From a bacterium (GTDB taxonomy: Bacteria; Patescibacteriota; Minisyncoccia; UBA6257; WO2-44-18): DNA of 64,000 nucleotides. The translations under genes and the position numbers were made by a program. The notes under the pieces are model-generated. The model had not been told where the DNA came from, did not search any database, and saw nothing but the letters and a program-made list of their open reading frames with translations. Positions within the stretch are counted from its first letter, which is position 1. Each line of letters starts with the position of its first letter. Below are positions 24,524 to 58,004 of this stretch, in pieces. The DNA lies in the NCBI GenBank assembly GCA_030646995.1, contig JAUSKF010000006.1, positions 8,624 through 72,623 on the forward strand, written 5' to 3'.

Positions 24524-24570
24524 ATTTGTTGTAAAATAATGCGTGCGCAGTTATATTGAGATTGGTTTAC

Positions 24571-26191: not shown

Positions 26192-26255
26192 TTTTGACTA
26201 TCCCACGTATTTTATTGCATACTACCCCTAGTTGTTTAACAAGAGAGGAGTAGAT

Positions 26256-29610: not shown

Positions 29611-29671
29611 CTTAAATTGCCAAACCGGCTTTAAATTGTTAATTTATGGTTATAACTTCCGTCTATCAGAT

Positions 29672-31865: not shown

Positions 31866-31866
31866 A

Positions 31867-39439: not shown

Positions 39440-39443
39440 AAAG

Positions 39444-42171: not shown

Positions 42172-43113
42172 ATGTCTGATTTATCGAAAGATAAATATAT
42201 CATTGTTAACTACCACTACGTGGAAGATCCGCGCCCTAAGTCGGCGGGAATTTCTCCCTGTTCGATTGCTGAGTTTGATCGTCAGATCAGTTATTTGTCA
42301 AAGAATTTTAAAATAGTCAACTTGGGAGAGATTTATCAGGCCGCGGTTTCCGGTAAGGAGGGGAAGTTTTGTGCTATTACTTTCGATGATGGCCTGAAAG
42401 ACAATTATGTTAATGCTTTTCCAATCCTCCAGAAATATCAGGCAACGGCTACTTTCTTTATCATTACCTCTGTATTCGAGCATCGTCTACCCGCAGCTCA
42501 CAAGATCCATATTTTACTTTCTAGATTTACCGCTGATCAGATTATCGATCTTTTCCATACTTTCATAGGTGAGTTTTATCCAGACCTAAAAAACCAATAT
42601 ATCATTCCCAAGGACCGTCGTTTAACAGAGCGTAGGATGCATGAAGGAGTAGCAATGGCTAATTTCAAAGAAACAATGATCGCCTTGCCGGAAGATGTGC
42701 GGAGTCAGTTTTTGCGTTATGGATTTAAGATTAATAAATTGAACGAGGAAAAAATCAGTAGCCATTTATTTTTAAATCGAGAAGAAATCAAGGCTTTGCT
42801 GGATGGGGGCATGCAAATCGGTTCGCACTCCCATGGTCATTATTCTATGTCAGGAGACGATGAATCTTTTTTGCGAAAAGACGTAAAACTTTCCAAAGAA
42901 ATTTTATCAGGGATCATCGGCGCTTATCCCAAATGGTTTTCCTATCCGCATGGGCGTTCTAGCGCGGTGGCCGAACGGGTTCTGCGAGAGGAGGGTTTTG
43001 ATTTAGCGGTGACTATTCAGCGGAAAAAAATAGAGAGCACCGATAGTCCGTTGACGATCCCTCGGTATGATACGATAGATATAAAAGAGTATTTGGATGA
43101 GCAAAAGATTTAG
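42172..43113 (+). CDS. Polysaccharide deacetylase (NodB-homology / CE4), paralog B
   Basis: FCAITFDDGLKDNY, GSHSHGHY, SYPHGR; paralogous to the ORF at 25295..26191. Confidence 0.7.
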   Translation: MSDLSKDKYIIVNYHYVEDPRPKSAGISPCSIAEFDRQISYLSKNFKIVNLGEIYQAAVSGKEGKFCAITFDDGLKDNYVNAFPILQKYQATATFFIITSVFEHRLPAAHKIHILLSRFTADQIIDLFHTFIGEFYPDLKNQYIIPKDRRLTERRMHEGVAMANFKETMIALPEDVRSQFLRYGFKINKLNEEKISSHLFLNREEIKALLDGGMQIGSHSHGHYSMSGDDESFLRKDVKLSKEILSGIIGAYPKWFSYPHGRSSAVAERVLREEGFDLAVTIQRKKIESTDSPLTIPRYDTIDIKEYLDEQKI

Positions 43114-44929
43114 TTTTTTAATTCTGGGTTTGGCAGTGTTAGTTGGGGTGCTTTATCTAGCACCTCAACTCCTAATCAAGCGCGCTGTGGAAAATTCCGG
43201 TCGTACTTTCGTATTGGCTCAATTCAACCAGCTGCATGATGGGGGAGAAGTCTATTTCCAGTTTGCTCGCGAGGCCGCTGAAGGCCATATTCCGCCTGCC
43301 GATCTTTATTTTGACCAGCAGCTCCCCAATATTTATCCGCCTCTTCCACCGGTGATTTTGTCGGTATTGATCCGAATATTCGGAGACGTGACCGGGGCTT
43401 ATTTGGCCGCGTTGTTTATTTTTCCGGCGATTACCTTTCTGTTCTTCTTTTGGTTGGGCTGGATTGTTTTTGATCGCAATAAGCTTTGGTCGGTTTTTAT
43501 GGCTTTGACTGGAATTCTAACTCCTATATTTTTAGTAACCTCGCAAATATTTTTAGGCCCTTCATATTTTGCAAATATCGTATTGAAGAATTTTTATCCC
43601 GGCATCCAGACCCTGCTACCGCTTTTATTCTTCTCCCGGGTTGATCACCCCCTGATTACCAGCTTAATTTACCTTCCGGCCATCGCTTCGTTGTTGATCT
43701 TTTGGAAAAGACCGAGCGCCAAGACGGCGGTTTTAACCGGGTTTGTTTCCGGGCTGCTTTTCTACACCTACTTTCACTTCTGGGCCTATTGGGTGGTGGT
43801 GGGCGGGTTGTTGTTGGTAGCGTCACTACTCTTGTGGCGCCATGAAAAAGCTTTGATAAAAAATTTCCTTGGACTGATCGGCGTTTTTATTGTGATAAGT
43901 ATCCCATATGTAGTTAATCAGTTTCGGTTAAGTCGGTTGCCGGGGTATGACGAGTTTATTAAGCGGGTGGGGGTGGATTTTGGACACGGTGTCGGTTGGC
44001 AGTGGTGGCCATATTATTTGATTTACGCCGGAATGGCGATTTTGATTTACGCGGTTCTTTGGAAGAAAGAGAATGAAAAAAAACGAGCGGTTTTTTACTG
44101 GGTGGCGTTGTTGTCCGGAGTGGTGGCGTTGAATGTTCAGGTGATTACAGGATTCGTACCGCATCCAGATCATTGGTCTAGAGCCGTAGATCCAATCTTG
44201 GCATTGATGATATTTGAGATCATTTATCATCTAGCGAAGAGAGCTTCGGCTCGTTATCCAAATTTCAAAAAGGCGTTGCCGATAGCACTCGCTTTGCTGA
44301 TGGTTCTACTTGTGGCGAAAAAGGCGGTGAACGTGGCCGGCTTTGTGAGGCCTGACCCGGAGTCGCTGGTTCAGTACGCGATGCCGGAGGATTTGTTGGA
44401 ATCTTGGCGATGGATGGATGAAAACCTGAAAGAACCAAAGATTATTTCGCCTTCTATCATCACGACTATTTATTCCACGGCATTCAGTTCGGCGCGGCCG
44501 TTTTTGCCATCAGGTGGCGTTATCCCAATAACCAACGAAAAACTGGAAGACCTTTTTTTGATTGCCAATAAAGTTTTTGGAGTGAGTGTGGATGTAGTGG
44601 AGAAGCGATTAAGAGGGGGCGTGGGATTAGATTGTAAATATCTTTGCGATTGGAACCCTGCGCTCGTGAACATCGAGGGAGCTTCAGGGTTTCTGTACTC
44701 CTCTTATTTTAAGCACCTGACGGGCTCTAAGGCGGTACCGGAAGAAAAGATTGCCGAACTTTCTCGTAAGTATCGGAAAATTCGAGCTGATTGGGATAAC
44801 TTGGGGGCGAATTATGTCTATTATGGGCCGCTCGAGAGGCAATTTTCCACAATTGATCCAAAGAAAGATTCTCGGTTGGAATTGGTTTATAAAAATACCT
44901 CGGTAGAGATTTATAAAATTAAGCGCTAG
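43097..44929 (+). CDS. Large polytopic membrane protein, GT-C-like (ArnT/PMT-like lipid-linked-sugar transferase candidate)
   Basis: About 14 TM helices. Homologous to the C-terminal 600 aa of the GT2 fusion at 61116..63629 (HEKALIKNFLGL versus HDKALIKNFLIL; YVYYGPLERQF versus YVYYGPWEKQF). Confidence 0.5.
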   Translation: MSKRFSFLILGLAVLVGVLYLAPQLLIKRAVENSGRTFVLAQFNQLHDGGEVYFQFAREAAEGHIPPADLYFDQQLPNIYPPLPPVILSVLIRIFGDVTGAYLAALFIFPAITFLFFFWLGWIVFDRNKLWSVFMALTGILTPIFLVTSQIFLGPSYFANIVLKNFYPGIQTLLPLLFFSRVDHPLITSLIYLPAIASLLIFWKRPSAKTAVLTGFVSGLLFYTYFHFWAYWVVVGGLLLVASLLLWRHEKALIKNFLGLIGVFIVISIPYVVNQFRLSRLPGYDEFIKRVGVDFGHGVGWQWWPYYLIYAGMAILIYAVLWKKENEKKRAVFYWVALLSGVVALNVQVITGFVPHPDHWSRAVDPILALMIFEIIYHLAKRASARYPNFKKALPIALALLMVLLVAKKAVNVAGFVRPDPESLVQYAMPEDLLESWRWMDENLKEPKIISPSIITTIYSTAFSSARPFLPSGGVIPITNEKLEDLFLIANKVFGVSVDVVEKRLRGGVGLDCKYLCDWNPALVNIEGASGFLYSSYFKHLTGSKAVPEEKIAELSRKYRKIRADWDNLGANYVYYGPLERQFSTIDPKKDSRLELVYKNTSVEIYKIKR

Positions 44930-44945
44930 AAGATCTTTGCGTAGG

Positions 44946-44975
44946 TTGATTTTTTTGGGCTAAATGGTCTAGTAT
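44946..44975 (+). promoter_or_regulatory. Candidate promoter TTGATT -18- TAGTAT, ending 8 nt before the rfbF ATG (leaderless-type)
   Basis: Hexamers only; no Shine-Dalgarno sequence upstream of the ATG. Confidence 0.2.
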
Positions 44976-44982
44976 TCAGGGT

Positions 44983-45786
44983 ATGAAAGTAGTTATCTTG
45001 TGCGGCGGGAAAGGAATGCGGCTCCGCGAGGAAACCGAGCACAAACCTAAGCCATTAGTAACTATCGGCGAGATGCCGATTCTTTGGCATATTATGAAAA
45101 CCTACGCCCACTATGGGTTCAGGGATTTTGTGCTTTGCCTGGGTTATAAAGGCGAAATGATTAAGGATTATTTTCTTGGCCTTGATGAAGCGGCCAACGA
45201 TTTCACCCTGAAGCTTGGTTCCGGACCGAAAGTGATTACTCATCACAACAAGCGTGGTTTGGCGGATGACTGGAATATCACCTTCGTGAATACCGGCCTG
45301 AATTCCAATACCGGCTCCCGCCTCGCTAAAATAAAAGATTTCATTGGCAATGACGAAGAGTTTTTGTTGACCTACGGCGATGGCGTCGCGGACATTGATA
45401 TCAACGCTGCGGTGGCCTACCACAAGCAGAAGGGGAAGGTGGCTACACTTTCCGGAGTGAATTGGATTAATCCTTTTGGTGTCATTGAGCCGCAAGATGG
45501 ATTAGTGGCGGCCTTCAAAGAGAAGCCCCGCTCCAAGGCCTTCATCAACGGCGGATTTTATATATTAAACAAGAAAGTTTTTGACTACGTGAAAAAAGAC
45601 GAGGACTGCATTTTGGAAAAAGAACCGATGGAAAAATTATCGCGGGAAGGTCAGTTGGCAATCTATGAGCATCACGGATTCTGGTACTGTGTAGATACGA
45701 TGAAGCACTTAGAAGATTTGAATGTGATGTATGCCTCCGGTAATCGTCCGTGGATGGTTTGGGAAAATAAAACGACCGAAGTTTAA
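44983..45786 (+). CDS. rfbF: Glucose-1-phosphate cytidylyltransferase
   Basis: MKVVILCGGKGMRLREET..KPKPLVTIGEMPILWHIMK...FLLTYGDGVADIDI...INGGFYILN...HHGFWYCVDT closely matches RfbF/DdhA. Confidence 0.8.
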   Translation: MKVVILCGGKGMRLREETEHKPKPLVTIGEMPILWHIMKTYAHYGFRDFVLCLGYKGEMIKDYFLGLDEAANDFTLKLGSGPKVITHHNKRGLADDWNITFVNTGLNSNTGSRLAKIKDFIGNDEEFLLTYGDGVADIDINAAVAYHKQKGKVATLSGVNWINPFGVIEPQDGLVAAFKEKPRSKAFINGGFYILNKKVFDYVKKDEDCILEKEPMEKLSREGQLAIYEHHGFWYCVDTMKHLEDLNVMYASGNRPWMVWENKTTEV

Positions 45787-45803
45787 ACTTCGGTCGTTTT
45801 ATT
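45766..45803. terminator. Perfect 38-bp palindrome (AAAACGACCGAAGTTTAAACTTCGGTCGTTTT core), a bidirectional terminator shared by convergent genes whose stop codons overlap at its centre
   Basis: Seen directly. The GTTTAAAC centre supplies TAA on both strands, and both genes end with the peptide NKTTEV. Confidence 0.7.
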
Positions 45804-46847
45804 CCAGTAGAGTTTTTCGTCAATCTCCTTCTTGTCTTTCAGGTGATTGATTTGCTTAAGACGAATGAAATGCCGCTGTTCTAAGGGTTTTTCCGGTAAT
45901 CCATGTTTTTGGAAATCATCCCGTAGTTCTTCCGCCGCTTTTTTCAGGTCCCATTTAAATTTGAAATCTGGAAGTATTTTCTGCAGTTTTTGGAAAGACA
46001 CTCGATAACTGCGGGAATCTTTATCGGGCTTGTCCGATAGGGAAATTTTGGCCTTTGGGAAGACTCCTTGAACTATCTGCGCTATTTCTTTGACTTGATA
46101 GTTTTCTTTATCCTGGCCGCAATTAATCGCTTCTCCGCGCACTTTTTCTTCCGGAGTCTCCAGAAAGGCCACGAATAGCCGAGCGATATCTTCTGCGTGA
46201 ATCATCGGCCTCCACGGAGTTCCGTCGCTCAAGATTTTCACCTCGCCAGCCGAGAAGGCATTGGCGGCGAAATTATTCAGCACTATGTCTAGGCGAAGCT
46301 TGCTGGAAGAGCCATAGGCGGTGGCGTTACGGAGGATTATCGGGCAGAATTTTTCATCGGCCATTCCTTTTAATACTTTTTCAAATTCTACTTTTGATAT
46401 TGCATAAGCTGTTCGTGGGTCGGTGGGCGTTTCTTCGTCCACTGGTTTTTCTCCGCCGAGAGCTCCATAGATACTACAAGAAGAAGAGAAGAGGAATTTT
46501 TTTACGCCTGATTCTTTGGCGAGCTTGGCGAGCCGGATGGAGCCGTTGAGGTTGATGTCCATTGTGAGCTGGGAGTCTAGTGCTCCCATCGGATCGTTAG
46601 AGAGGGCGGCCAGATGGCAGATGGCATCTACGCTGGAGAGGTCGCTTTCATTGATATCCCGCACGTCTTTTTTAATGGCGGTAAAATTGGCGGTCTTTTT
46701 GAAAACGCATTCCGGGTCGTCAAAATAGCCGGCATCCACGCCGAGCACTTCGTATCCTTTTTCCTGCAATAACGGCACCAGCAGAGAGCCAATATAGCCA
46801 TTACTGCCGGTTACCAGCACCTTTTTTAGCTTATCCATATAGCGCAA
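45783..46847 (-). CDS. NAD-dependent nucleotide-sugar epimerase/dehydratase (extended SDR)
   Basis: VLVTGSNGYIGS, catalytic S…YAISK. Convergent with rfbF; 354 aa. Confidence 0.7.
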   Translation of the reverse strand: MRYMDKLKKVLVTGSNGYIGSLLVPLLQEKGYEVLGVDAGYFDDPECVFKKTANFTAIKKDVRDINESDLSSVDAICHLAALSNDPMGALDSQLTMDINLNGSIRLAKLAKESGVKKFLFSSSCSIYGALGGEKPVDEETPTDPRTAYAISKVEFEKVLKGMADEKFCPIILRNATAYGSSSKLRLDIVLNNFAANAFSAGEVKILSDGTPWRPMIHAEDIARLFVAFLETPEEKVRGEAINCGQDKENYQVKEIAQIVQGVFPKAKISLSDKPDKDSRSYRVSFQKLQKILPDFKFKWDLKKAAEELRDDFQKHGLPEKPLEQRHFIRLKQINHLKDKKEIDEKLYWNKTTEV

Positions 46848-46875
46848 TGATTATGAAACAAAAACTGGAAAATAT

Positions 46876-46900
46876 AAAGCCCCGATTTTGTCGGGGCTTT
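46876..46900 (-). terminator. Hairpin terminator AAAGCCCCGAttttgTCGGGGCTTT
   Basis: Immediately downstream (on the minus strand) of the stop of the DUF218-like gene. Confidence 0.5.
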
Positions 46901-46904
46901 GTTT

Positions 46905-47576
46905 TTACATTTCGTCGCGAATTCTAAGATATTCAAACATCTCGGGGATGGTGGCGTTTGGAGTGAAGTCGACGCCGTCCTTTTGAGCGTACTTCACGAT
47001 TCGGTCGTATTCACCCTGTACGTGGTCTACGAGCGTCCCGTCCATCGTTCCGCCACCGAGTAGCGGTTTCGCGAGCGGTTTGCTCCAATCCACTACGTGG
47101 AAAGTGCGATTGTACGCCTTCACGAAGATGCCCAACTTTTTCATCGAGGCGATGATTTGCAGGAAACAGCGGAGTTGGTGATGTGGAGCAGTAACGATTG
47201 TCACTGCTCTAAGATCTTGATCGTGCATCATCTTCAGCAAAGTTTCCGATTCGGCAGCGGTGTGATCGGCTCCTGCGATTATGCTGATGTCATCACGCCT
47301 AACTCCACAGCGCTCTAGTTCATCGGTAAATACTTCTAGGCCGGGATAGGCGAGGCCGCGCAAGCTGCAGACTAGATGCGAATGGCCGTTCAAGAAAATA
47401 TTCTTCGTCATCTTCTCTTTGTAGAACCGACCGATTGTGATTGCGGCCTCTCGGTTGTGTGCGGTGCTGGTGGTCGGGCTCCCATGCCAGAACAGACAGT
47501 CGGTTTTCTTCTCCTTGTCCATGAGGACCATCAGCACGGCCTTCATCATTTCGGCGCTTGTCGGCTCCCACTTCAC
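46905..47576 (-). CDS. DUF218 (YdcF/ElyC/SanA-like) domain protein
   Basis: AVTIVTAPHHQLR matches the DUF218 T-x-x-x-H-x-x-R signature; Rossmann-like; about 220 aa. Confidence 0.45.
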   Translation of the reverse strand: MKWEPTSAEMMKAVLMVLMDKEKKTDCLFWHGSPTTSTAHNREAAITIGRFYKEKMTKNIFLNGHSHLVCSLRGLAYPGLEVFTDELERCGVRRDDISIIAGADHTAAESETLLKMMHDQDLRAVTIVTAPHHQLRCFLQIIASMKKLGIFVKAYNRTFHVVDWSKPLAKPLLGGGTMDGTLVDHVQGEYDRIVKYAQKDGVDFTPNATIPEMFEYLRIRDEM

Positions 47577-47676
47577 GGGCCACCTCCTTTGTTGGGGTTC
47601 TGTGGGAAATAATAAATCAAAAAACCAGTAATGTCAAGGTTGAAAGAAAGCCGATTTTATCGTAAAATATCGGAGT

Positions 47677-48630
47677 ATGTTAAGTGAACCGAAAGCGGTT
47701 TTAGTGACCGGGGCGACCGGTTTTGTGGGTTCTCATTTGGTGCAGAGATTGACCAATGAGGGATATCAGACCCATATCTTATTGAGAACAAAGTCCGATC
47801 CGTGGAGGATAGCGGACATTTTGCCGAAACTGAAAGCGCATAATGTGGACCTGACTGATAGAGAAGGATTAGTAAAACTGATGGAAGAGGTGAGGCCGAA
47901 CTTTATATTCCATTTGGCAACCGCCGGGGTTTATGGAGGGAAGTCTTTACCTGATCAAGATCTTTTGAAAATAAATTTGGGCGGATTCTTAAATTTGGTG
48001 GAGGCAACTAATGATCTCGAATATTCTTTGTTCGTTAACACTGGAAGTTCAAGTGAATACGGTCCCAAAAATGAAGCGATGAAAGAGGGTGATGTGTGTC
48101 AACCTTCAAATATGTATGGGATCACCAAGTTGGCCGCCACTTTATACGGCCAGGCAGTCGCTGCGACCCACAAAAAGCCGATCGTGACTTTGCGGCTTTT
48201 CTCTCCGTTCGGCTCGCACGACGATGCCAAGCGTTTTATGGCGATTGCTGTAAGCGGGGGAATAAAAAATGAGGAATTGATCCTTAGTAACCCCACAGCT
48301 GTGCGCGACTTTATTTATATTGACGATGTGATTGATGCCTATCTACAATGTATGAGCAAAGCGGAAGCGCTTCGCGGCCAGGTGCTCAATATCGGCAGTG
48401 GCATAGAGATTGGCATTCCGTCCCTGTGCGAGAAGCTAAAAGAAATAGGCAAGTTTACCAACACTATCCGTAAGGAGCCGGGTCAGCCGAGGCTGGGAGA
48501 GTCTCCGAGTTGGCAGGCGGACATCACGAAAGCCAAAAAGTTGTTGGGGTGGCAACCCAAGCGTTCGCTGGAAGAGGGGCTGGAAAAGACTATTACTTGG
48601 TTTAGGGAGAATCTTAAATCTTATGAATAA
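47677..48630 (+). CDS. NAD-dependent nucleotide-sugar epimerase/dehydratase (extended SDR)
   Basis: VLVTGATGFVGSHLV, S…YGITK catalytic motif. First gene of the 16-kb co-directional operon. Confidence 0.7.
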   Translation: MLSEPKAVLVTGATGFVGSHLVQRLTNEGYQTHILLRTKSDPWRIADILPKLKAHNVDLTDREGLVKLMEEVRPNFIFHLATAGVYGGKSLPDQDLLKINLGGFLNLVEATNDLEYSLFVNTGSSSEYGPKNEAMKEGDVCQPSNMYGITKLAATLYGQAVAATHKKPIVTLRLFSPFGSHDDAKRFMAIAVSGGIKNEELILSNPTAVRDFIYIDDVIDAYLQCMSKAEALRGQVLNIGSGIEIGIPSLCEKLKEIGKFTNTIRKEPGQPRLGESPSWQADITKAKKLLGWQPKRSLEEGLEKTITWFRENLKSYE

Positions 48631-49573
48631 CCATCTGACACAAAAGAAAATTTCCGTAGTGATTGCCTGCTACAACGAGGAGGCAAACATCCGGACCTTA
48701 TACGACCGGCTGATTAACGTTTTTAAAGACATCACCCCTCACTACGAATTTATCTACGTTGATAACAACAGCACTGATAGTTCGCCGCAGATCTATAAAG
48801 AGCTGGCGGCGCAGGACAAATCCGTTTCCGCCATATTAATGGCCAGGAATTTCGGAACTTCCGATTCTTCTTTTTCGGCCGGTACCGAATATGCCTCCGG
48901 CGACGCCGTGATCTGGATAGACGGTGACATCCAAGATCCTCCGGAGTTGATAAAAGAATTCGTGCAGAAATGGTTGGAAGGCAATGATGTTGTTTATGGC
49001 ATCCGGGCGAAGCGCGATGCCAGCTTGGTAATGAAGCTAGGTTCTAAGTTGTTCTATCGTGTCTTTAACAAAATGTCTTATATCCATATGCCGGTGGACG
49101 CGGGAGATTTCGGCTTGATGGACCGAAAGGTGGTGGACGTCTTCAATCAGCTGCCGGAGCGCGACCGGTTCGTGCGTGGATTACGGGCTTGGGTAGGCTT
49201 TAAGCAGACCGGAATACCGTACAAGCGAGCCGACCGCCAAGCAGGAGTGAGTACGCAAAAGATTTCGCGTTATTTTTACACCTTCCGCAAAGGAATCTTC
49301 TCCTTTTCTTATTACCCACTTTCCCTGATCACTTATCTGGCTGTTTTCGCTTTCTTTATTTTGGTGGCGGCAGGAATTATTTACCCGATTTGGTCCATTA
49401 TTGATCCCGCGCCTTCCGGATTCCTGACAATCTTAATGATTGTTTTGTTTATCGGCAGTGTGCAAATGATTTCTCTGGCAATCTTGGGCGAATATCTTGG
49501 AAGAATTTTTGAAGAAGTGAAGGGTCGGCCGAAGTATGTAATTCGGGAGATTATTAACGATAAAAGAAAATAA
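48623..49573 (+). CDS. GT2 polyprenyl-phosphate glycosyltransferase (ArnC/GtrB/DPM1-like) with C-terminal TM helices
   Basis: ISVVIACYNEEANI, YVDNNSTDSS, WIDGDIQDPPE (DxD region), two C-terminal TM helices. Confidence 0.75.
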   Translation: MNNHLTQKKISVVIACYNEEANIRTLYDRLINVFKDITPHYEFIYVDNNSTDSSPQIYKELAAQDKSVSAILMARNFGTSDSSFSAGTEYASGDAVIWIDGDIQDPPELIKEFVQKWLEGNDVVYGIRAKRDASLVMKLGSKLFYRVFNKMSYIHMPVDAGDFGLMDRKVVDVFNQLPERDRFVRGLRAWVGFKQTGIPYKRADRQAGVSTQKISRYFYTFRKGIFSFSYYPLSLITYLAVFAFFILVAAGIIYPIWSIIDPAPSGFLTILMIVLFIGSVQMISLAILGEYLGRIFEEVKGRPKYVIREIINDKRK

Positions 49574-51351
49574 TGAAGTTATCCGACTATTTAATTGAAT
49601 ATCTACGCGACCAAGGGGTGAAGGATGTTTTTTTGGTAACCGGAGGAGCGGTGGCGCACATCGTGGACTCTTTTCGAAACATAAAGGGCATTGATTATGT
49701 GTGCACCCAACACGAACAGCCGGCGGCGATGGCGGCAGAGGCTTACGCGCGTGTTACCGGAAATATTGGAGTGGCGATGGCGACCAGTGGGCCGGGAGCG
49801 ACTAATTTAATTACCGGAATGTGTTGCGCTTGGTTTGATTCTATCCCGACGGTTTATATCACGGGGCAGGTCAATCGCGGAGAGTCAAAAGGAAAGAGCG
49901 GAGCGCGGCAGGTCGGTTTCCAGGAAACCGACATTGTCAGCATGGTGAAGCCAATCACTAAGTACGCAGTATTAGTGGATGATCATTTGAAAATAAAATA
50001 TTACTTAGACAAAGCTTTTTATATGGCCAAAGAAGGCCGGCCCGGACCGGTTCTGATTGATGTGCCGATGGATGTCCAGCGGCAGGAAATTGACCCAGCG
50101 AAACTCAGGGGTTTTAACGCGCCGAAAGAAAAAACTGTGGATGCGGTTTTAAAAAAGAAAATTAAATCCGCCTTGGCATTGGTTGCGAAATCCCAGCGCC
50201 CGGTAATCCTTGCGGGTGGGGGAATTAAGTTAGCTAAGGGCAATGCTGAGCTTTTGGAATTCATTAAGAAAACCGGCTTCCCGGTAGTTACCTCTTGGAG
50301 CGGATTTGACCTAGTGCCGCACAACCATAAAATGTTGGTAGGGCAATTCGGAGTTTATGGAAACCGAGGAGCTAACTTTGCCGTGCAAAATGCTGATTTG
50401 ATAATTAGCGTGGGTTCTCGTTTGGATACAAGGCAAACCGGCGGCCGTCCGGCTACTTTTGCCAGAGAGGCAAAAAAAATTGTTGTGGACATTGATCAGT
50501 CTGAGCTGGATAAGCGCCGAGGTCTGACTCCTGATGTTGAGATTTGCGCCGACGCTAAGTTATTTTTGAAAGAGATGAATCAATCTCTTAAAGATATAAA
50601 AATTCCCAAGATTGATTCATGGCTGAAAAAGGCGGCTGAATGGAAAGTGAAATATCCTACAGTTCTCCCTGAATATGAAAAGCAAAAGGGCAGCGTTAAT
50701 TCCTATGTTTTCGCTAAAACTCTTTCCGAAGAAGCCGCGGCGAATTCAATCGTCCTTCCCGATGACGGAGGCAACCTTACTTGGACAATGCAGTCTTGGC
50801 AGCTGAAAGAAGGCCAGATGCTTTTTTCGGCCTTCGGGAATTCTCCGATGGGTTATTCTTTCCCGGCGGCGATTGGCGCTTCTTATGCCGCCGACCACAA
50901 ACGTCCGGTGATTTGTATCATCGGTGACGGCAGTTTCCAGATGAATATTCACGAACTGCAAACCGTTGCTCACTATAAGATTCCAATCAAGATATTTATT
51001 TTGAATAATCACTCTTACGGAATCATCAAGCAATTCCAGGATATGTATTTTGGTGGCCGACACGAGGCTTCTTCCTCGGACAAAGGCTATAGCTGTCCGG
51101 ATTTTATTAAAGTTGCTCAAGCATACGGGCTAAAGACTGTTTCTATTAATAATCATCAGGAGTTACGGAAAAAGATTAAGGAGGTGCTGGCCTCTAAGGA
51201 GGCAGTTCTATGTGATGTGTTGTTGGATGAAGGGCAAAAGTTGATGCCGAAATTGGAATTCGGAAAATCGATTGAAGACTTGATGCCTTATTTGCCGCGC
51301 GAGGAGTTTAAGAAAAATATGATCGTGAAGCCGTTGGACGAACCAAGATAA
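49573..51351 (+). CDS. Thiamine-pyrophosphate-dependent enzyme, acetolactate-synthase-like (YerE/IlvB family)
   Basis: TPP_enzyme N/M/C architecture; TPP-binding GDGSFQMNIHELQT with NN…; about 590 aa. Confidence 0.75.
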   Translation: MKLSDYLIEYLRDQGVKDVFLVTGGAVAHIVDSFRNIKGIDYVCTQHEQPAAMAAEAYARVTGNIGVAMATSGPGATNLITGMCCAWFDSIPTVYITGQVNRGESKGKSGARQVGFQETDIVSMVKPITKYAVLVDDHLKIKYYLDKAFYMAKEGRPGPVLIDVPMDVQRQEIDPAKLRGFNAPKEKTVDAVLKKKIKSALALVAKSQRPVILAGGGIKLAKGNAELLEFIKKTGFPVVTSWSGFDLVPHNHKMLVGQFGVYGNRGANFAVQNADLIISVGSRLDTRQTGGRPATFAREAKKIVVDIDQSELDKRRGLTPDVEICADAKLFLKEMNQSLKDIKIPKIDSWLKKAAEWKVKYPTVLPEYEKQKGSVNSYVFAKTLSEEAAANSIVLPDDGGNLTWTMQSWQLKEGQMLFSAFGNSPMGYSFPAAIGASYAADHKRPVICIIGDGSFQMNIHELQTVAHYKIPIKIFILNNHSYGIIKQFQDMYFGGRHEASSSDKGYSCPDFIKVAQAYGLKTVSINNHQELRKKIKEVLASKEAVLCDVLLDEGQKLMPKLEFGKSIEDLMPYLPREEFKKNMIVKPLDEPR

Positions 51352-52517
51352 TGGAGCATCAATTTTCTAAAGACGCAAAAAATTTAGTTGGCAGCCCGAT
51401 GTTCAAAATGATGGCGCGGGTGCAGGAGCTGGAAAAGTCCGGCAAGAAGATCATCCATTTTGAAATAGGCGATCCCGATTTTTCCACGCCTCAGCGTATT
51501 ACCGATGCGGCAATCGATGCTTTGAAGGCCGGAGAAACTCACTATGTGAATTCTTCCGGTATGGCCCAGCTACGCGATGCTATCTGCGATTCCACCGAAA
51601 AAGATCTGGGTTGGAGGCCGGAGCGTGAGCAGGTCGTCGTTGCCCCAGCGATTTCTTTTATTTATTTTACCGTCCGGGCGTTGGTTAATCCCGGTGAAGA
51701 AGTGATTGTAGCAGAGCCGGGCTATTCTTCATATTTTTCTACTTTTGACTTCATCGGCGTAAAGGCCGTCACCGTTCCGGTATTTGAAAAGAATAATTTT
51801 CGGCTAGCGGCGGCCGATCTGGAAAAAGCGATTACTCCAAAAACTCGGTTGGTAATTCTCACTTCTCCTAGTAATCCGACCGGGGCGATGATGACCAAGG
51901 AGAATTTGACGGCCATCTACAAGCTGGCGGAGAAGCATAATTTTTATATCTTGAGCGACGAGGTTTATAAAAAAATGACTTACGACTTGCCCTTTAGCTC
52001 CATTTCGGCCAACGACCGTTGCCAGGAACGGGTGATTATTTTGGATGGATTTTCAAAGGCTTATGCAATGACTGGCTGGCGTCTGGGTTATTCTATTGCT
52101 CCGAAGCCAATCGCTGAAAAATTAGGATTAATGATTCAGACGGTCATTTCCAATGTGCCCCCATTTATTCAATTGGCAGGCGTTGAGGCCCTTTCCGGAG
52201 ATCAGAGCAGTATAAAAGTGATGATGGATGAGTATCGAAAGAGAAAGGATGTGATGATTAAAGGATTTAATGAATTGCCTGGAGTTTCCTGCATAGATCC
52301 CGATGGAGCTTTTTATGCATTTCCGAATATTCAGAAAACCGGAATGACCAGCAAAGAATTTGCGGAATTTATTTTAGAAAAGGCCAACGTTGCGCTGTTG
52401 CCCGGCACTGATTTTGGGCCGCACGGCGAGGGATATTTACGTGTTACCTTTGCCACCTCTTTGTCTAATATTGAAGAAGGGCTTCGCCGGATGAAAGAAG
52501 CGCTGTCAAAAAAATAA
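51351..52517 (+). CDS. PLP-dependent aminotransferase, class I/II (AspB-like)
   Basis: IHFEIGDPDF, SPSNPTG, PLP-Lys SKAYAMTGWRLGY. Confidence 0.7.
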   Translation: MEHQFSKDAKNLVGSPMFKMMARVQELEKSGKKIIHFEIGDPDFSTPQRITDAAIDALKAGETHYVNSSGMAQLRDAICDSTEKDLGWRPEREQVVVAPAISFIYFTVRALVNPGEEVIVAEPGYSSYFSTFDFIGVKAVTVPVFEKNNFRLAAADLEKAITPKTRLVILTSPSNPTGAMMTKENLTAIYKLAEKHNFYILSDEVYKKMTYDLPFSSISANDRCQERVIILDGFSKAYAMTGWRLGYSIAPKPIAEKLGLMIQTVISNVPPFIQLAGVEALSGDQSSIKVMMDEYRKRKDVMIKGFNELPGVSCIDPDGAFYAFPNIQKTGMTSKEFAEFILEKANVALLPGTDFGPHGEGYLRVTFATSLSNIEEGLRRMKEALSKK

Positions 52518-52518
52518 A

Positions 52519-53823
52519 ATGGATAAAGAAATAGCGGGTTTCATAAAAAAGTATTACCAGAAGAACTTCGCGGGGAAGAAATTCGTTCCCGGCGAAACAC
52601 ATATTCCCGCTTCGGGAAAATCTTTTGATTATCAGGAGATGGTTTTGATGACGGAAGCCGTTTTGGATGGTTGGTGGACCGAGGGACGGTTCGCGGCGGC
52701 TTTTGAGAAGCAGTTGGCCGAATTCGTAGGCGTCAAACATTGCGTTACCACCAATTCCGGATCTTCGGCCAATCTTCTGGCTATTTCCGCGCTGACTTCT
52801 TATCATCTGGGCGAACGACGCTTGAAACCGGGAGATGAAGTGATTACTTTGGCAGCCGGATTCCCAACCACTATTAATCCGATAATTCTTCATCAAGCCA
52901 TCCCGGTTTTCGTGGATATTGATCTCGCGACTGCCAACGTGGATATTGGAAAATTAGAGAAAGCTTTCTCTAAAAAAACTAAAGCTGTGTTCCTTCCTCA
53001 CCATCTCGGCAATCCATTTAACGTGGCAGCCGTTCAGAAGCTTTGCAAAAAACATAAAGCCTGGCTGATAGAGGATTGTTGCGATGCTCTGGGGGCGAAA
53101 TTCGGTGGGAAGCGCGTCGGCAGCTTCGGCGACTTGTCCACCTTCAGTTTTTATGCCGCACACCACATAACCAGCGGAGAAGGAGGAGCGATAATGACCA
53201 ATGATGAGCGGCTGGCCGCCATCGTGCGTTCATTCCGTGATTGGGGTCGGGAATATTGGTTCAAGACTGGCGAGGATATCCGACGCAACAAAGGCCTGGG
53301 AACGGTTAAGCACAGCAAGCTTCCGGCTGATTACGATGATAAATTTATCTTCTCCGAGATCGGCTACAACCTGCGCCTGACCGATATGCAGGCCGCGCTG
53401 GGTTTAGTTCAACTCGGAAAGATCGGAGAGTTCGCGAAACGTCGGGAAAGCAATTTCCAATATTTGTATAAGTTGATGAGCCCGTATAAAAAGTTCTTTA
53501 TTTTGCCGGGCATGGAAAAATCCGCAGCGCCTTCTTGGTTTGGATTTTTAATGACCCTGAAGCCGGATTGCCCATTTACTCGTAAGGAATTCGTGGATTA
53601 TTTGCACAAACACAACGTTGGTACCCGTATGTTCCTCGCCGGCAACGTTATCAAGCAGCCGTACTTCCAGATATATAAGGTAAAGTTTAAAGCTGGGAAT
53701 CTTGCCAGCACGGATTACGTTTTGAGTAATTCCGTTTGGGTCGGAGTCCATCAGGCGATTGATAATGAGAGGAGGGAATATATGGGGAAAGTCTTGAAGT
53801 CGTTTTTGGCGAAGTATAAATAA
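52519..53823 (+). CDS. DegT/DnrJ/EryC1/StrS-family PLP/PMP enzyme, RfbH/DdhC-like (CDP-4-keto-6-deoxyglucose 3-dehydratase-like)
   Basis: KKFVPGETHIPASGKSFDYQEMVLMTEAVLDGWWTEGRF…VKHCVTTNSGSSANLLAISALTS matches the RfbH N-terminus; 434 aa, which is the RfbH size class. Confidence 0.7.
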   Translation: MDKEIAGFIKKYYQKNFAGKKFVPGETHIPASGKSFDYQEMVLMTEAVLDGWWTEGRFAAAFEKQLAEFVGVKHCVTTNSGSSANLLAISALTSYHLGERRLKPGDEVITLAAGFPTTINPIILHQAIPVFVDIDLATANVDIGKLEKAFSKKTKAVFLPHHLGNPFNVAAVQKLCKKHKAWLIEDCCDALGAKFGGKRVGSFGDLSTFSFYAAHHITSGEGGAIMTNDERLAAIVRSFRDWGREYWFKTGEDIRRNKGLGTVKHSKLPADYDDKFIFSEIGYNLRLTDMQAALGLVQLGKIGEFAKRRESNFQYLYKLMSPYKKFFILPGMEKSAAPSWFGFLMTLKPDCPFTRKEFVDYLHKHNVGTRMFLAGNVIKQPYFQIYKVKFKAGNLASTDYVLSNSVWVGVHQAIDNERREYMGKVLKSFLAKYK

Positions 53824-55172
53824 TGACAAAGACCATTTTTATTACGATCTTCCAAGGAGTGGAGGCGCGTAATATTCTCCGAACCGATATATATAAGGAA
53901 TTGGTTGGTCGTCCGGATGTTCGGCTGGTTCTTTTTACCGACAGTGAAGAGAAAAGGAATTATTATCAAAAGGAATTTAACGGTCCGAACGTGATCTATG
54001 AGGTCGTTGGGGAATATCACGCTCGCGGCATTCAGAAATTTTTTGGTGCAGCCAAATTCAATCTAATTAATACTGCCACGGTTGATATTAAAAGAGATAT
54101 CCTGTTTTTCAAAGAACATAGTTATCTGAAATTTTATCGGCGGTGGCTGATCAATCGGCTGTTCGCGCGCAATTTTGTTCGCCGGATAGTTCGCTGGTTG
54201 GACTGGCGGTTGGTTTCTGACCAGTTTTTTAAAAAGTATTTTGATCAATACGATCCGGATCTAGTCCTATCAGCACATCTTTTTGGTGGCACAGAGACCG
54301 CAGTGATTCGGGAGGCGCGCCGTCGTGGAGTTGTCAGCGTCGGATTGATCAATTCCTGGGATAAACTGACCGCCAGAGCAATGATCCGTTTGCTTCCGGA
54401 TTGGATGATTGTTCATAACGATTCAGTGAAAAAAGATGCGATTATTTATGCCGATATGCCAGCTGGTCGCATCTTCGTTTCCGGCATACCCCACTTCGAT
54501 CGGTATAAGACCGGGACCAGGGCTCCGCGCGATCGCTTTTTGCAAGAGATCGGCCTTGACCCCGATAAAAAAACCATTTTGTATCTTCCAGTCGGTCGCG
54601 CCGCCAGTGATGATGATGCCGATATGATGAAATTTTTTGCCGATCTGTTATCGGATAAACGTTTGAAATTTCCGACTCAGCTGATTTTTCGATTCCCGCC
54701 TAATGATGAGATTGTCGCGGAGGGAAAATTTCCAAATGGTGTAGTTATTCAAACACCGGGACGAAGATTCTCTTTGAAACGTGGATCGGATTGGGATATG
54801 AATGAGGACGATTTCCGGATCCTAGCCGACACAATTACTAGCAGTGATGTCGTGGTCGGGTATCCTTCAACGATGATGATAGATGCGGCGATTTTTGATA
54901 AGCCGGTGATTAACATTGCATATGAGCGGCGCCCGCATCCCCGAAATTTCATCCTCTGGGCTTACGAGGTGGATCACTATCGGTCCGTGCTCAATACCGG
55001 CGCCGTCCGGTTGGTTAAGAATGACGATGAATTAATTGATCAGCTGAATGCTTATTTTGCGGATCCTTCATCGGATCGTGAGGGGCGCCGTCGTTTAGTC
55101 GCGGAGCAATGCGGCGCACAGGACGGTAAGGCGGGAAAGCGGGTGGCGGATTTTTTGCTAAACCGTATTTAA
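53823..55172 (+). CDS. TagB/TagF-like polyol-/glycosyl-phosphate transferase, paralog 5
   Basis: MTKTIFITIFQGVEARNIL; VVGYPSTMMIDAAIFDKPVINIAYE; terminal QDGKAGKRVADFLLNRI. Confidence 0.5.
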   Translation: MTKTIFITIFQGVEARNILRTDIYKELVGRPDVRLVLFTDSEEKRNYYQKEFNGPNVIYEVVGEYHARGIQKFFGAAKFNLINTATVDIKRDILFFKEHSYLKFYRRWLINRLFARNFVRRIVRWLDWRLVSDQFFKKYFDQYDPDLVLSAHLFGGTETAVIREARRRGVVSVGLINSWDKLTARAMIRLLPDWMIVHNDSVKKDAIIYADMPAGRIFVSGIPHFDRYKTGTRAPRDRFLQEIGLDPDKKTILYLPVGRAASDDDADMMKFFADLLSDKRLKFPTQLIFRFPPNDEIVAEGKFPNGVVIQTPGRRFSLKRGSDWDMNEDDFRILADTITSSDVVVGYPSTMMIDAAIFDKPVINIAYERRPHPRNFILWAYEVDHYRSVLNTGAVRLVKNDDELIDQLNAYFADPSSDREGRRRLVAEQCGAQDGKAGKRVADFLLNRI

Positions 55173-55190
55173 AACGATACTATTAAACCA

Positions 55191-55667
55191 ATGATCTCAT
55201 TTGAAATATTAAGGAAATACAGTGACCGGGATCGAGCTGATATTAATCGGCTCCTTCCTCAAATTGCCGAAAAACCTCATTTGTTATCAAAGAAAGAATT
55301 CCAGAAAGTTTTGAACGAGAAGGACAATTGCAATCTGGTGGTGGCCAGAGACAGCATTAAGAAAAGGATCGCGGGGATGGCTGCCGTCACTTTTGCTCGA
55401 GTCCCTACTGGTCTTTTGGCGATGGTTGAGGACGTGGTAGTGGATTCCGATTATCGTGGAATGGGTATTGGAGCTAAGCTGACCGAAAAGTTGATCGCCT
55501 TAGCGAAGAAAAGGATGGCGAAGCACATCAGTCTTACGACTAATCCGGCGCGCGAAGCTGCCAACGCCATGTATAAGAAAATGGGGTTTTTTTTGAAGGA
55601 AACTAATTATTACCGCATCAACTTGCACCTACCAAAGCCCAACCTTAAGAGGGGTAAGAATCTATAG
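55191..55667 (+). CDS. GNAT-family N-acetyltransferase
   Basis: Motif A VVVDSDYRGMGIGAKL; 158 aa. Confidence 0.65.
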   Translation: MISFEILRKYSDRDRADINRLLPQIAEKPHLLSKKEFQKVLNEKDNCNLVVARDSIKKRIAGMAAVTFARVPTGLLAMVEDVVVDSDYRGMGIGAKLTEKLIALAKKRMAKHISLTTNPAREAANAMYKKMGFFLKETNYYRINLHLPKPNLKRGKNL

Positions 55668-55717
55668 GGTGTATTGGATTTTTCCTGATTTTGTTGCATA
55701 GTCTTAGGGAAATTATG

Positions 55718-55939
55718 GAGTATATAAAGCTCAAGCGGCGCAAGGACAACCTGATTATCCTGCGTTATCCCGACGGCCACGAAGTGGTCAGCTTGGTAAG
55801 TGAAGTTCAGCATCCCGTGATTCGGGAAGCCTTGGAGTCTCGGAGCTTTCGTGGCGGGCTGGATTTGGTGGCCAGTTCCGCAATCGCCAAGCGAGAAGAT
55901 GTCCTGCAGGCATTGGATCGCGAATCGTTAACCTCTTAA
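55718..55939 (+). CDS. Small hypothetical protein (74 aa)
   Basis: An ORF with no recognisable motif, between the GNAT and acpS genes. Kept only because the operon is tightly packed. Confidence 0.15.
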   Translation, partial: EYIKLKRRKDNLIILRYPDGHEVVSLVSEVQHPVIREALESRSFRGGLDLVASSAIAKREDVLQALDRESLTS

Positions 55940-55943
55940 AAAA

Positions 55944-56291
55944 ATGGAAAAAATTTTGGGTATCGGTGTGGATCTTGCAGAGGTCGGGAGGTTTCGGAAA
56001 ATGCCGTTTAAGCGGCATTCCGATTTCTATAAAAAAATTTTTACCGCGTCGGAGATAAAGTATTGTTTATCGAAAGAAAATCCTTATCCGCACTTCGCCG
56101 CTCGCTTTGCCGCCAAAGAAGCGGTGCTTAAGTGTATTCAAGGTACTATTTATAAAATTTTGGATGTGGAGATTTTCAATGATAAAAATGGAGCTCCGAG
56201 TGTTAAAGTTAAAAAGCAGCGAGGAAGATTTTTGGTTTCGCTTTCGCACACCAAAGATCACGCTATTGCCACAGCAATATGGTTAAATTAA
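55944..56291 (+). CDS. acpS: Holo-[acyl-carrier-protein] synthase (4'-phosphopantetheinyl transferase, AcpS type)
   Basis: ILGIGVDLAEV, RFAAKEAVLKCIQ, SLSHTKDHAIATAI. Confidence 0.7.
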   Translation: MEKILGIGVDLAEVGRFRKMPFKRHSDFYKKIFTASEIKYCLSKENPYPHFAARFAAKEAVLKCIQGTIYKILDVEIFNDKNGAPSVKVKKQRGRFLVSLSHTKDHAIATAIWLN

Positions 56292-57757: not shown

Positions 57758-57962
57758 AGTTCGGGAATTTCTTAAAACAGAAACTCAAAAAGAAATTACC
57801 AACGATTCGGAGAATCTGATTACTTCCGGAGTGCTCGATTCTTTTTCGATGATTAAATTGATTACTTTTATTGAGAGCGAGCTAAAGATCAAGGTGGATA
57901 TGGAAAAATTATCTGCGGAAAATTTTAATTCCATCGAGAAGATAGATGAATTTCTTCGGTAA
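57741..57962 (+). CDS. Acyl/aminoacyl carrier protein (DltC-like)
   Basis: 73 aa with GVLDSFSMIKLITFIE; the Ser in the LDS motif is the phosphopantetheine attachment site. Overlaps the adenylating enzyme gene by 17 nt. Confidence 0.6.
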   Translation: MEIKNKVREFLKTETQKEITNDSENLITSGVLDSFSMIKLITFIESELKIKVDMEKLSAENFNSIEKIDEFLR

Positions 57963-58004
57963 ATAGGCTTGCCAAAAGCAGTAAATTCTCGTATATTTTT
58001 TATT

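Follow-up and report, generated by a model that had tools for sequence, protein, structure and literature searches.

The genes described here lie on contig JAUSKF010000006.1 of an uncultivated bacterium of the candidate phyla radiation (CPR)/Patescibacteria. The analysis concerns a 64-kb stretch of this contig, the window, to whose coordinates all positions refer, and the whole of it is one very large glycan island. Within it, the interval 44983-53823 holds eight open reading frames (ORFs). Together with the membrane protein gene before them, they probably make up a module (43097-53823) for the synthesis of a cytidine diphosphate (CDP)-activated, C3-deoxygenated and C4-branched hexose of the yersiniose type, and for its delivery to the cell surface on a lipid carrier. 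The module includes a homologue of the dehydratase E1 (RfbH) that has lost three of its four iron-sulfur cluster cysteines.

Gene content and operon layout

Family assignments (Table 1) come from searches with Pfam and NCBIfam/TIGRFAM profiles and from sequence comparison with the PDB. From 47677 to 55172 each start codon overlaps or abuts the preceding stop codon, so these genes form one operon. The 100-bp gap at its head contains the region's best sigma-70-like matches, scoring 11/12 on the minus and 10/12 on the plus strand; the total count of such matches is no higher than the shuffled expectation.

Table 1. Features at 43097-55172 of the window (SDR, short-chain dehydrogenase/reductase; GT, glycosyltransferase; ThDP or TPP, thiamine diphosphate; PMP, pyridoxamine phosphate; NJ, neighbour-joining)
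Feature	Position	Strand	Basis or remark
GT-C-fold membrane protein, 610 aa	43097-44929	+	AlphaFold2 model and Foldseek
RfbF-like glucose-1-phosphate cytidylyltransferase	44983-45786	+	TIGR02623, 292 bits; PF00483
SDR-B, extended SDR	45783-46847	-	Convergent with, and overlapping the end of, 44983-45786
Strong bidirectional terminator-like hairpin	46874-46902		Between the DUF218-like gene and SDR-B
Soluble protein, 223 aa, weakly DUF218/YdcF-like	46905-47576	-	PF02698, sub-threshold
Divergent promoter-like sites	47609-47668		100-bp gap at the head of the main operon
SDR-A, reductase/epimerase-type extended SDR	47677-48630	+	Motifs GSS[SA]EYG and YGITK
GT2 of the ArnC/PgfS/GtrB type	48623-49573	+	PF00535; PgfS and ArnC models
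YerE-like ThDP carboligase, three TPP domains	49573-51351	+	Profiles, PDB matches, NJ tree
Class I (Asp/aromatic-type) alpha-amino-acid aminotransferase	51351-52517	+	PF00155, 211 bits
E1/RfbH-family PMP-dependent C3-dehydratase	52519-53823	+	NF011936, 569 bits
TagF-like (Glyphos_transf) GT-B enzyme	53823-55172	+	PF04464, 48 bits

The first-pass annotation had read the interval as a parts list for a CDP-activated dideoxy or branched-chain hexose, consisting of the RfbF-like, SDR-B, YerE-like and RfbH-like genes. All four exist where it placed them. Four further ORFs were absent from the list, namely those for the DUF218-like protein, the second SDR (SDR-A), GT2 and the class I aminotransferase, as were the loss of the E1 iron-sulfur ligands and a delivery route through GT2 and GT-C. 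The cytidylyltransferase and RfbH-like genes had been taken as hallmarks of CDP-hexose pathways; in the profiles the former scores just under the TIGR02623 cut-off of 300.25 and the latter above the NF011936 cut-off of 423. The RfbF-like protein is 49-54% identical to the nucleotidyl (NTP) transferases of four sister cassettes (L002, L006, L101 and L009; related loci carry L numbers throughout). The nearest named relatives of the RfbH-like protein are from Parcubacteria, Ryanbacteria and Buchananbacteria (CPR/Patescibacteria).

An E1-family dehydratase without three of its cluster ligands

E1, with its reductase E3, is the classic example of radical-type deoxygenation by a vitamin B6 enzyme with the help of an iron-sulfur cluster, and ColD is the cluster-free alternative. 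The product of 52519-53823 belongs with the former: its NF011936 match is full-length and above the curated cut-off, and it aligns end-to-end (residues 3-429) with Yersinia E1 (3bcx) at 445 bits, against at most 199 bits with ColD and at most 160 bits with aminotransferases. Its AAHHIT aligns to the PAHHIT of E1 (H220-H221) and to the PAKHIT of the H220K mutant 3bb8. It thus has the dehydratase His at the H220 position, where true aminotransferases and 3bb8 have Lys, which settles the active-site check that the first-pass annotation had proposed.

In the same pairwise alignment, the cluster loop of E1, RDCYCAPGCDNTCKK, corresponds to REYWFKTGEDIRRNK in the window protein. Numbering by residue count on the alignment places C251, C253, C257 and C261 of E1 in this loop and C193 in EDCCDALG; the [2Fe-2S] ligands, as reported by Agnihotri et al. 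2004, are C193, C251, C253 and C261. The window protein retains the C193 equivalent alone, with Y, F and R at positions 251, 253 and 261. The four-cysteine [2Fe-2S] motif is present in E1 and SpnQ, and absent in ColD (PMC8987622).

This difference is not peculiar to the window. Among the 120 best database homologues, C251, C253 and C261 occur in 0/33 of the closest group (at least 59% identity) and in 87/87 of the others, whereas C193 is kept in both. The 33 carry Y/F, F/Y and R/Q/K at the three positions, with D250E and R264G accompanying the cysteine loss, and the His at the H220 position is invariant across this clade. A replacement metal site was sought through clade-specific cysteines, and no new one was found in the 33 members compared with the 87 other homologues. 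In an NJ tree the Cys-less sequences are monophyletic in 44/50 bootstraps; they are CPR-dominated, and their sister group consists of Cys-containing CPR sequences. Judged by these alignments, the altered cluster loop is a single, stably inherited remodelling and not sequencing noise, because the split of 33 against 87 is absolute and the clade is monophyletic.

Another 14 Cys-less loci, many of them from groundwater, were recovered from metagenomes with a DNA pattern that targets DWGREYWF specifically. As a control set, genome contigs were scanned with patterns common to all E1 homologues, which gave 79 canonical loci and one short Cys-less locus. A tblastn search with the E3 of L039 (Fer2, FAD_binding_6 and NAD_binding_1 domains) found no E3 reductase in the 64-kb window, where none had been obvious at first sight either, nor in nine Cys-less loci. 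With the cluster ligands lost, the enzyme would be unable to take electrons from E3, and the loss would explain why E3 is missing.

How such an enzyme might turn over is indicated by ColD, whose route is the only known alternative to reduction via E3. There, the PMP-glucoseen intermediate is hydrolysed to pyridoxal phosphate (PLP) together with an enamine sugar, the latter giving the 3-deoxy-4-keto product and ammonia, and PMP is regenerated from L-glutamate (PMC8987622). The C3-dehydratase of the Campylobacter jejuni HS:5 pathway is likewise glutamate-dependent (PMC10680097). On sequence grounds, the Cys-less E1 homologue most likely turns over in this ColD-like manner, without E3. A review of nucleotide-sugar dehydratases lists only E1 and SpnQ, with a cluster, and ColD, without one (PMC8987622), and no description of a cluster-less E1-type enzyme was found in the open-access literature. 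By sequence and by its His the Cys-less clade is E1 family, yet it lacks the cluster motif that serves as the family's defining test.

SDR-B in the position of the 4,6-dehydratase

The pathway requires a 4-keto sugar, and the first-pass annotation had seen no canonical CDP-glucose 4,6-dehydratase. This holds throughout the window: against a TIGR02622 cut-off of 278, SDR-A scores 74.9 bits and SDR-B 21.7 bits, and a tblastn search with the Ser-Asp-Lys (S-D-K) dehydratase of a sister locus finds no orthologue in the 64 kb, the best match being a 30%-identical epimerase-like SDR. An S-D-K SDR of 332-336 aa is encoded in L002, L006, L101, L105 and L107, and the proteobacterial RfbG of L039 has Thr-Asp-Lys (T-D-K); the gene is absent from both the window and L001. 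Where the dehydratases of L002, L006, L105, L107 and L039 carry SDK or TDK, SDR-A has SSSE and SDR-B has SSCS.

SDR-B (start in the public record, ATG 46838) is characterised by the motifs SSSCSxYG (SSSCSIYG in the window) and YAxSK. Its best PDB match, a weak one, is 6vo6, with 114.6 bits over 283 aligned residues and RLDxxxNxF in common; the depositor's molecule name for this entry matches C. jejuni Cj1427. SDR-B is present only where the S-D-K enzyme is absent (the window, L001, L091 and L102) and absent from L002, L006 and L101, which have the S-D-K enzyme, and in both lineages it is convergent with an NTP-transferase gene. Members of this large family occur in many phyla at ~50% identity, SsSCSxYG is almost invariant among them, and all three distant members whose contexts were examined lie in RfbH clusters without an S/T-D-K enzyme. 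In Bacteroidales (L108/L109 and L111) these clusters comprise NTP_transferase, SDR-B, an RmlC-like protein, RfbH with its cysteines (Cys+) and an NAD_binding_1 reductase; in Magasanikbacteria (L110), Cys+ RfbH and SDR-B are divergent, beside RmlC-like, RmlD-like reductase and NTP_transferase genes.

These contexts suggest that SDR-B takes the RfbG position, and thereby back the earlier proposal that the convergent SDR substitutes for the 4,6-dehydratase. We propose that SDR-B would oxidise C4 of a CDP-hexose and be either a 4,6-dehydratase of an atypical kind or a C4-dehydrogenase resembling Cj1427. Cj1427 is a C4-dehydrogenase that acts on GDP-heptose and is recycled by 2-oxoglutarate, and a C4-dehydrogenase combined with a glutamate-dependent C3-dehydratase yields a 3-deoxy-4-keto sugar without 6-deoxygenation (PMC10680097). 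Were SDR-B only a C4-dehydrogenase, the product would therefore keep its 6-OH. In the Bacteroidales clusters, a separate observation concerns the 241-243-aa NAD_binding_1 protein encoded after Cys+ RfbH (L108, 10720-11445; L111, 10058-10789), which is without the Fer2 domain of E3 and may be a shortened reductase partner.

SDR-A was considered as a hidden 4,6-dehydratase and rejected, since the Glu of its SSSEYG falls one position off the catalytic site in comparison with the Gmd of the window and with S-D-K enzymes; the SSAEYG of its orthologues also opposes this assignment. These orthologues (48-52% identity) adjoin the GT2 or TPP gene in L002, L006, L093, L101, L105 and L107. Because its Glu is out of register and the gene is conserved beside TPP or GT2 in all cassettes, SDR-A is a candidate YerF-like reductase of the branch carbonyl.

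The YerE-like carboligase and the conserved cassette

The product of 49573-51351 contains PF02776, PF00205 and PF02775, with HEQ, for the catalytic Glu, and GDGSFQMN...NN in the translation. It lies under the TIGR00118 equivalog cut-off for biosynthetic acetolactate synthase (480.9 against 538.35) and far under the cut-offs of every specific model for acetohydroxyacid synthase (AHAS), Gcl, Xsc and AlsS. Among solved structures it is closest to 5ahk (376 bits), the PpYerE structure of Hampel et al. 2018, and 8rph (369 bits), which shows the CDG variant of the ThDP motif as in JanthE; the best AHAS reaches 306. Structures of PpYerE and JanthE exist, and the CDG variant is the hallmark of JanthE (PMC12247030). 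The AHAS motif RFDDR is RLDTR in the window enzyme and RMDVR in 5ahk, and the Trp in QWQ of E. coli IlvI (AHAS III) is Phe in both. The gene is flanked by GT2 and aminotransferase genes, not by an ilvN/ilvH regulatory small subunit.

In an NJ tree without bootstrap, the window enzyme and its CPR orthologues fall within a clade of ~20 RfbH-adjacent TPP enzymes, 5ahk and 8rph, and E. coli IlvB, IlvI and Gcl fall outside it. A TPP homologue likewise adjoins RfbH in about 20 canonical RfbH loci, and the YerE-like gene shares an operon with the E1 homologue here and in the sister cassettes. The likeness to YerE noted at first reading is thus upheld, and sequence comparison supports 49573-51351 as a YerE-like, ketone-accepting ThDP carboligase. 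Two outcomes had been named beforehand as adverse to a CDP-hexose pathway, an aminotransferase Lys in the RfbH-like protein and grouping of the TPP enzyme with IlvB; what was found is the dehydratase His in the one and a position apart from IlvB/IlvI for the other.

The order SDR-A, GT2, TPP, aminotransferase, Cys-less RfbH is found again, with proteins 45-75% identical, in L002/L003, L006, L093, L101 and L103, with L101 forming a compact cluster of GT2, RfbF, dehydratase, SDR-A, TPP, aminotransferase and Cys-less RfbH. The same gene set is found in the Cys+ sister loci L105/L106 and L107, with PMT_2 or YfhO GT-C genes nearby, and the cassette is therefore older than the cluster loss. In L091, L102 and L104 the YerE-like slot is occupied by a split transketolase (Transketolase_N plus Transket_pyr/Transketolase_C; 5529-7270 in L091 and 7103-8406 in L104), an architecture for which branching of keto sugars has been suggested (PMC12247030). 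The exchange of the YerE-like gene for a non-homologous ThDP enzyme is, as context, strong evidence for a module built around ThDP-dependent C-branching of the dehydratase product.

Two further loci may be mentioned here. Genes for a sugar N-formyltransferase and a DegT aminotransferase are likewise present in L091. In Pseudomonas (L048, 6659-7975), rfbF-rfbG-rfbH and the gene for a YerE-like TPP enzyme have a flagellin gene immediately upstream of them, a layout that suggests flagellin glycosylation with a branched dideoxysugar.

A class I aminotransferase as probable donor supplier

The best PDB matches of the aminotransferase are 1dju and 1gd9, the Pyrococcus aromatic and aspartate aminotransferases. 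Both PLP-binding motifs, SPSNPTG and SDEVY, are conserved, as are the Lys of SKAYAMTGWRLGY, which forms the Schiff base, and the Arg of LRVTFA, which binds the alpha-carboxylate. The gene adjoins Cys-less RfbH in 12 independent Cys-less loci and is also found in Cys+ sister loci. A 49%-identical enzyme is encoded in L039 and L045, in the arrangement E3-RfbF-RfbG-RfbH-aminotransferase-TPP-SDR. As an adaptation to cluster loss the gene was consequently rejected, being present in Cys+ and in Cys+/E3 cassettes as well; glutamate supply cannot therefore be its only role, and this role is tied to the branching step. L039 (7104-15249) and L045 are from proteobacterial metagenome-assembled genomes (MAGs) of Burkholderiaceae and Gammaproteobacteria with canonical E1/E3, and hence the pairing of aminotransferase and YerE-like enzyme exists outside CPR too.

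YerE-like enzymes use C2 to C8 2-oxo acids, and clusters of the ErwE type encode donor-forming enzymes next door (PMC9306805, PMC12247030). The window aminotransferase probably supplies a 2-oxo-acid donor other than pyruvate from an amino acid, since no supplier of its own is needed for pyruvate. Were 2-oxoglutarate the amino acceptor, glutamate would be returned to the ColD-like dehydratase.

Proposed delivery by GT2 and GT-C

GT2 matches PF00535 at 96.8 bits and the PgfS and ArnC models at 233.6 and 152.9 bits, full-length but under the equivalog cut-offs; it has C-terminal hydrophobic segments at 228-292 and is conserved in all cassettes at 50-60% identity. We propose that it would move the finished sugar from CDP to undecaprenyl phosphate.

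The 43097-44929 protein, which has about 9-10 hydrophobic segments, has no Pfam or NCBIfam match. Its AlphaFold2 model (pLDDT 91.8) was compared with the PDB by Foldseek, and the top 16 matches are all GT-C enzymes (STT3, PglB, AglB, AftA, ArnT and AftD; probability 1.0, TM-score 0.42-0.54). The few source-named proteins among its 50 homologues are each a 'hypothetical protein' of CPR/Patescibacteria or unclassified-bacterium MAGs, and homologues accompany the cassette in L001, L091 and, distantly, L006. From the model, the protein is proposed as the final transferase, which would take the sugar off undecaprenyl phosphate and attach it to a surface acceptor.

Proposed pathway and alternatives

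Every step of the pathway outlined here is drawn from homology and conserved gene order. The RfbF-like enzyme would convert glucose-1-phosphate and cytidine triphosphate to CDP-glucose, and SDR-B, in place of RfbG/DdhB, would convert this to a CDP-4-keto sugar. The E1-family PMP enzyme would then remove the 3-OH, with hydrolysis of the enamine and regeneration of PMP from L-glutamate as in ColD. From an amino acid and 2-oxoglutarate the aminotransferase would produce a 2-oxo acid, the donor for branching, and glutamate, which would go back to the dehydratase. The YerE-like enzyme would decarboxylate the 2-oxo acid and place the acyl anion on C4 of the 4-keto sugar, after which SDR-A, comparable to YerF, would reduce the branch carbonyl. 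Finally, GT2 would load the sugar onto undecaprenyl phosphate in the cytoplasm and GT-C would transfer it to an extracytoplasmic acceptor.

A bolder version of this scheme is tentative. Here, an E1-family dehydratase would have shed both its cluster and E3, converging on the chemistry of ColD and sharing a closed glutamate/2-oxoglutarate loop with the aminotransferase. The donor would not be pyruvate (one example being hydroxypyruvate from scavenged serine, usable by both the YerE-like enzyme and the split transketolase), and with a Cj1427-like SDR-B the outcome would be a previously undescribed 3-deoxy (6-hydroxy) 4-C-acyl or 4-C-hydroxyalkyl hexose on the CPR envelope.

Several observations weigh against the pathway as drawn. 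The full-length TIGR02623 match of the RfbF-like protein falls 8 bits short of the equivalog cut-off. In the Cys-less clade C193 is kept, and the C192 equivalent and C75 are invariant, and an unconventional metal site may accordingly be present. E3 lies within 10 kb in only 20/79 canonical (Cys+) loci, so that its local absence is weak evidence on its own and was rejected as a discriminator. A canonical dehydratase could lie outside the 64-kb window, SDR-B is without an acid/base pair at the known 4,6-dehydratase positions, and its match to 6vo6 is, as noted, weak. Lastly, the cassette is also found, together with its aminotransferase, alongside Cys+ E1 (L105 and L107) and alongside E1 plus E3 (L039 and L045).

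An alternative is an ordinary yersiniose or 3,6-dideoxyhexose pathway, in which the E1 homologue would still be fed electrons (through an unconventional metal site or, as for SpnQ, by ferredoxin or flavodoxin), the canonical dehydratase and reductase would be encoded elsewhere in the genome, and SDR-B would be merely a terminal 4-reductase or epimerase. In favour of this, the window is part only of its source contig, a nearby E3 is also absent in 59/79 canonical loci, and SpnQ relies on general reductases (PMC8987622). L108 and L111, moreover, need a 4-reductase as well as a dehydratase, yet have one suitable local SDR each. We nonetheless consider this pathway unlikely. Three of the four ligands are Tyr, Phe and Arg/Gln/Lys throughout a monophyletic clade and invariant in the 87 other homologues; SDR-B and the S-D-K dehydratase are mutually exclusive in CPR cassettes; L110 has a separate RmlD-like reductase besides SDR-B and still no S/T-D-K enzyme; and C4 branching leaves no 4-keto group to reduce.

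Two further alternatives assign different roles to the enzymes. The aminotransferase may act after branching, converting the acetyl or glycolyl ketone to an amine and so giving a 4-C-(1-aminoalkyl) sugar, whose amine could be acylated by the downstream acetyltransferase of the GNAT family, DltA-like ligase and carrier. Transaminases are among the enzymes that modify acetyl branches (PMC9306805), the gene is kept with either a YerE-like enzyme or a split transketolase and with or without the E1 cluster, and a GNAT, a phosphopantetheinyl transferase (PPTase), an adenylating enzyme and a 73-aa carrier protein lie downstream in both the window and L001. This order of events is also improbable in our estimation: the enzyme is of the textbook class I alpha-amino-acid type with an alpha-carboxylate-binding Arg, the sugar aminotransferases that are known are DegT-family proteins, most cassettes (L002, L006, L101, L105 and L107) have no acylation genes, and the conserved SDR-A is the natural candidate for the same branch ketone. 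Far less credible is a cluster-less E1 homologue acting as a C4 aminotransferase to form a CDP-4-amino-4,6-dideoxyhexose, with the TPP enzyme and aminotransferase making an unrelated small-molecule substituent. SpnQ does transaminate without its reductase when given glutamate and PLP, but E1 and ColD do not under the same conditions, and E1 H220K transaminates only non-catalytically (PMC8987622). The invariant residue of the Cys-less clade is His, not Lys, and a need for a 4-keto product is implied by the tight, recurrent linkage to ThDP enzymes that accept ketones and are of two unrelated architectures.

Comparison with known systems

The closest point of comparison for the proposed C4-branching pathway is that to yersiniose A in Yersinia pseudotuberculosis (DdhA/RfbF, DdhB/RfbG, DdhC/E1, DdhD/E3, YerE and YerF). 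Common to the two would be a cytidylyltransferase, a 4-keto sugar, an E1-family enzyme with the catalytic His that removes the 3-OH using PMP, a YerE-like, ThDP-dependent enzyme that adds an acyl group at C4, and a candidate SDR reductase. The window differs in having neither an S/T-D-K dehydratase nor E3, in an E1 homologue minus three [2Fe-2S] cysteines, in a class I aminotransferase between the ThDP enzyme and E1, and in its CPR host, and the proposed product would pass to an ArnC-like GT2 and a GT-C, not into an O-antigen repeat unit.

In having His for the Schiff-base Lys, no iron-sulfur motif and no dedicated reductase, the window dehydratase resembles ColD and the C. jejuni HS:5 enzyme. 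Unlike ColD, a GDP-4-keto-6-deoxymannose 3-dehydratase, it is nested within Cys-containing E1 sequences and is ~45 residues longer, and its substrate is presumably a CDP-sugar where that of ColD is a GDP-sugar. The gene at 58988-60190, further downstream, is the properly ColD-like one in the window. SDR-B shares RLDxxxNxF with Cj1427, whereas the catalytic region reads PNTNSGYG in Cj1427 and SSSCSIYG in SDR-B. The ErwE and MMAR_2332 clusters, for erwiniose and caryophyllose, place a YerE-like enzyme beside donor-making enzymes, as proposed here (PMC9306805); there, the donor comes from an aldolase and dehydrogenase pair, and in the window the candidate is the aminotransferase. The pairing of a GT2 having C-terminal transmembrane helices with a GT-C recalls ArnC/ArnT, GtrB/GtrC and CsbB/YfhO. 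In contrast to these three-component systems, the window donor would be a CDP-sugar, not a UDP-sugar, the GT-C has no Pfam or NCBIfam match, and no flippase was identified.

Neighbouring genes and the wider glycan island

The hairpin beside SDR-B has a 13-bp stem, in which 6 pairs are G-C, flanked on each side by T runs. The DUF218-like protein matches PF02698 with E=0.0038 and 17.6 bits, under the cut-off, has no PDB match and is conserved only in L001 (61%); at most it is a possible member of the pathway. The small uncharacterised proteins of the sister loci had no Pfam match. The start codon of the TagF-like gene overlaps the RfbH stop codon, so that the two are translationally coupled. A TagF-like gene also follows RfbH in L001, and one lies near Cys-less RfbH in L104. 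The protein may be a cytidine-nucleotide-dependent transferase. It is one of five TagF-like paralogues in the window (21224-22570, 37045-38364, 39399-40799, 40809-42161 and 53823-55172), of ~440-466 aa and weak in Pfam, which co-occur with a NeuC-like UDP-GlcNAc 2-epimerase (23341-24498) and a CMP-sugar-type cytidylyltransferase (24556-25284). The five are possible transferases for cytidine-nucleotide donors, nonulosonic acids among them.

Immediately downstream of the TagF-like gene, 55191-57962 encodes a GNAT (55191-55667), an 82-aa ORF, an AcpS-type PPTase (55944-56291), a DltA-like adenylating enzyme (56279-57757) and the 73-aa carrier protein with a DSF motif (57741-57962). This acyl or aminoacyl carrier module, also found in L001, may acylate or aminoacylate a glycan. 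A second and separate 3-deoxygenation set follows at 57969-61116; it consists of Gmd, which exceeds the TIGR01472 cut-off with 511 bits, a DegT-family protein encoded at 58988-60190 and, at 269 bits, an Fcl-like SDR. The DegT-family protein has His, in YAAHLV, at the position of the perosamine synthase Schiff-base Lys and matches E1 and ColD over its full length, and the set looks like a GDP-colitose-type (ColD/ColC) pathway.

Elsewhere in the island, 28422-29576 scores 475 bits with the UDP-sulfoquinovose synthase model (cut-off 575), which hints at a sulfonated or related sugar. Genes for a D-2-hydroxyacid dehydrogenase, serine hydroxymethyltransferase and FolD lie among the glycan genes at 29636-32646, and a second FolD-like gene at 150-935; together, these could provide one-carbon units for sugar N-formylation, or serine and hydroxypyruvate for the branching donor. 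Radical SAM enzymes are encoded at 26232-28343 (703 aa, B12-binding) and 34734-36023 (radical SAM/SPASM). The cassettes of L002, L006 and L105 likewise have B12-radical SAM genes on their flanks. C-methylation or other radical tailoring of sugars is a possible role for these enzymes. At the upstream edge of the island, 8960-12712 encodes a 1250-aa protein whose sole match is a peptidoglycan-binding domain near its N-terminus; it may be a surface protein and a target of glycosylation.

Significance

The Cys-less E1 clade would be a natural evolutionary intermediate between the mechanisms of E1 and ColD, and would allow the need for the cluster to be tested. The cassette also points to an unrecognised SDR family that occupies the CDP-glucose 4,6-dehydratase slot in several phyla. 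Branching of the YerE type, if fed by an aminotransferase, would widen the range of ThDP carboligases and donors that are of interest for tertiary alcohols. For the ultra-small CPR bacteria, whose surfaces are essentially uncharacterised, these genes suggest an investment in rare branched deoxysugars, delivered by way of a lineage-specific GT-C.

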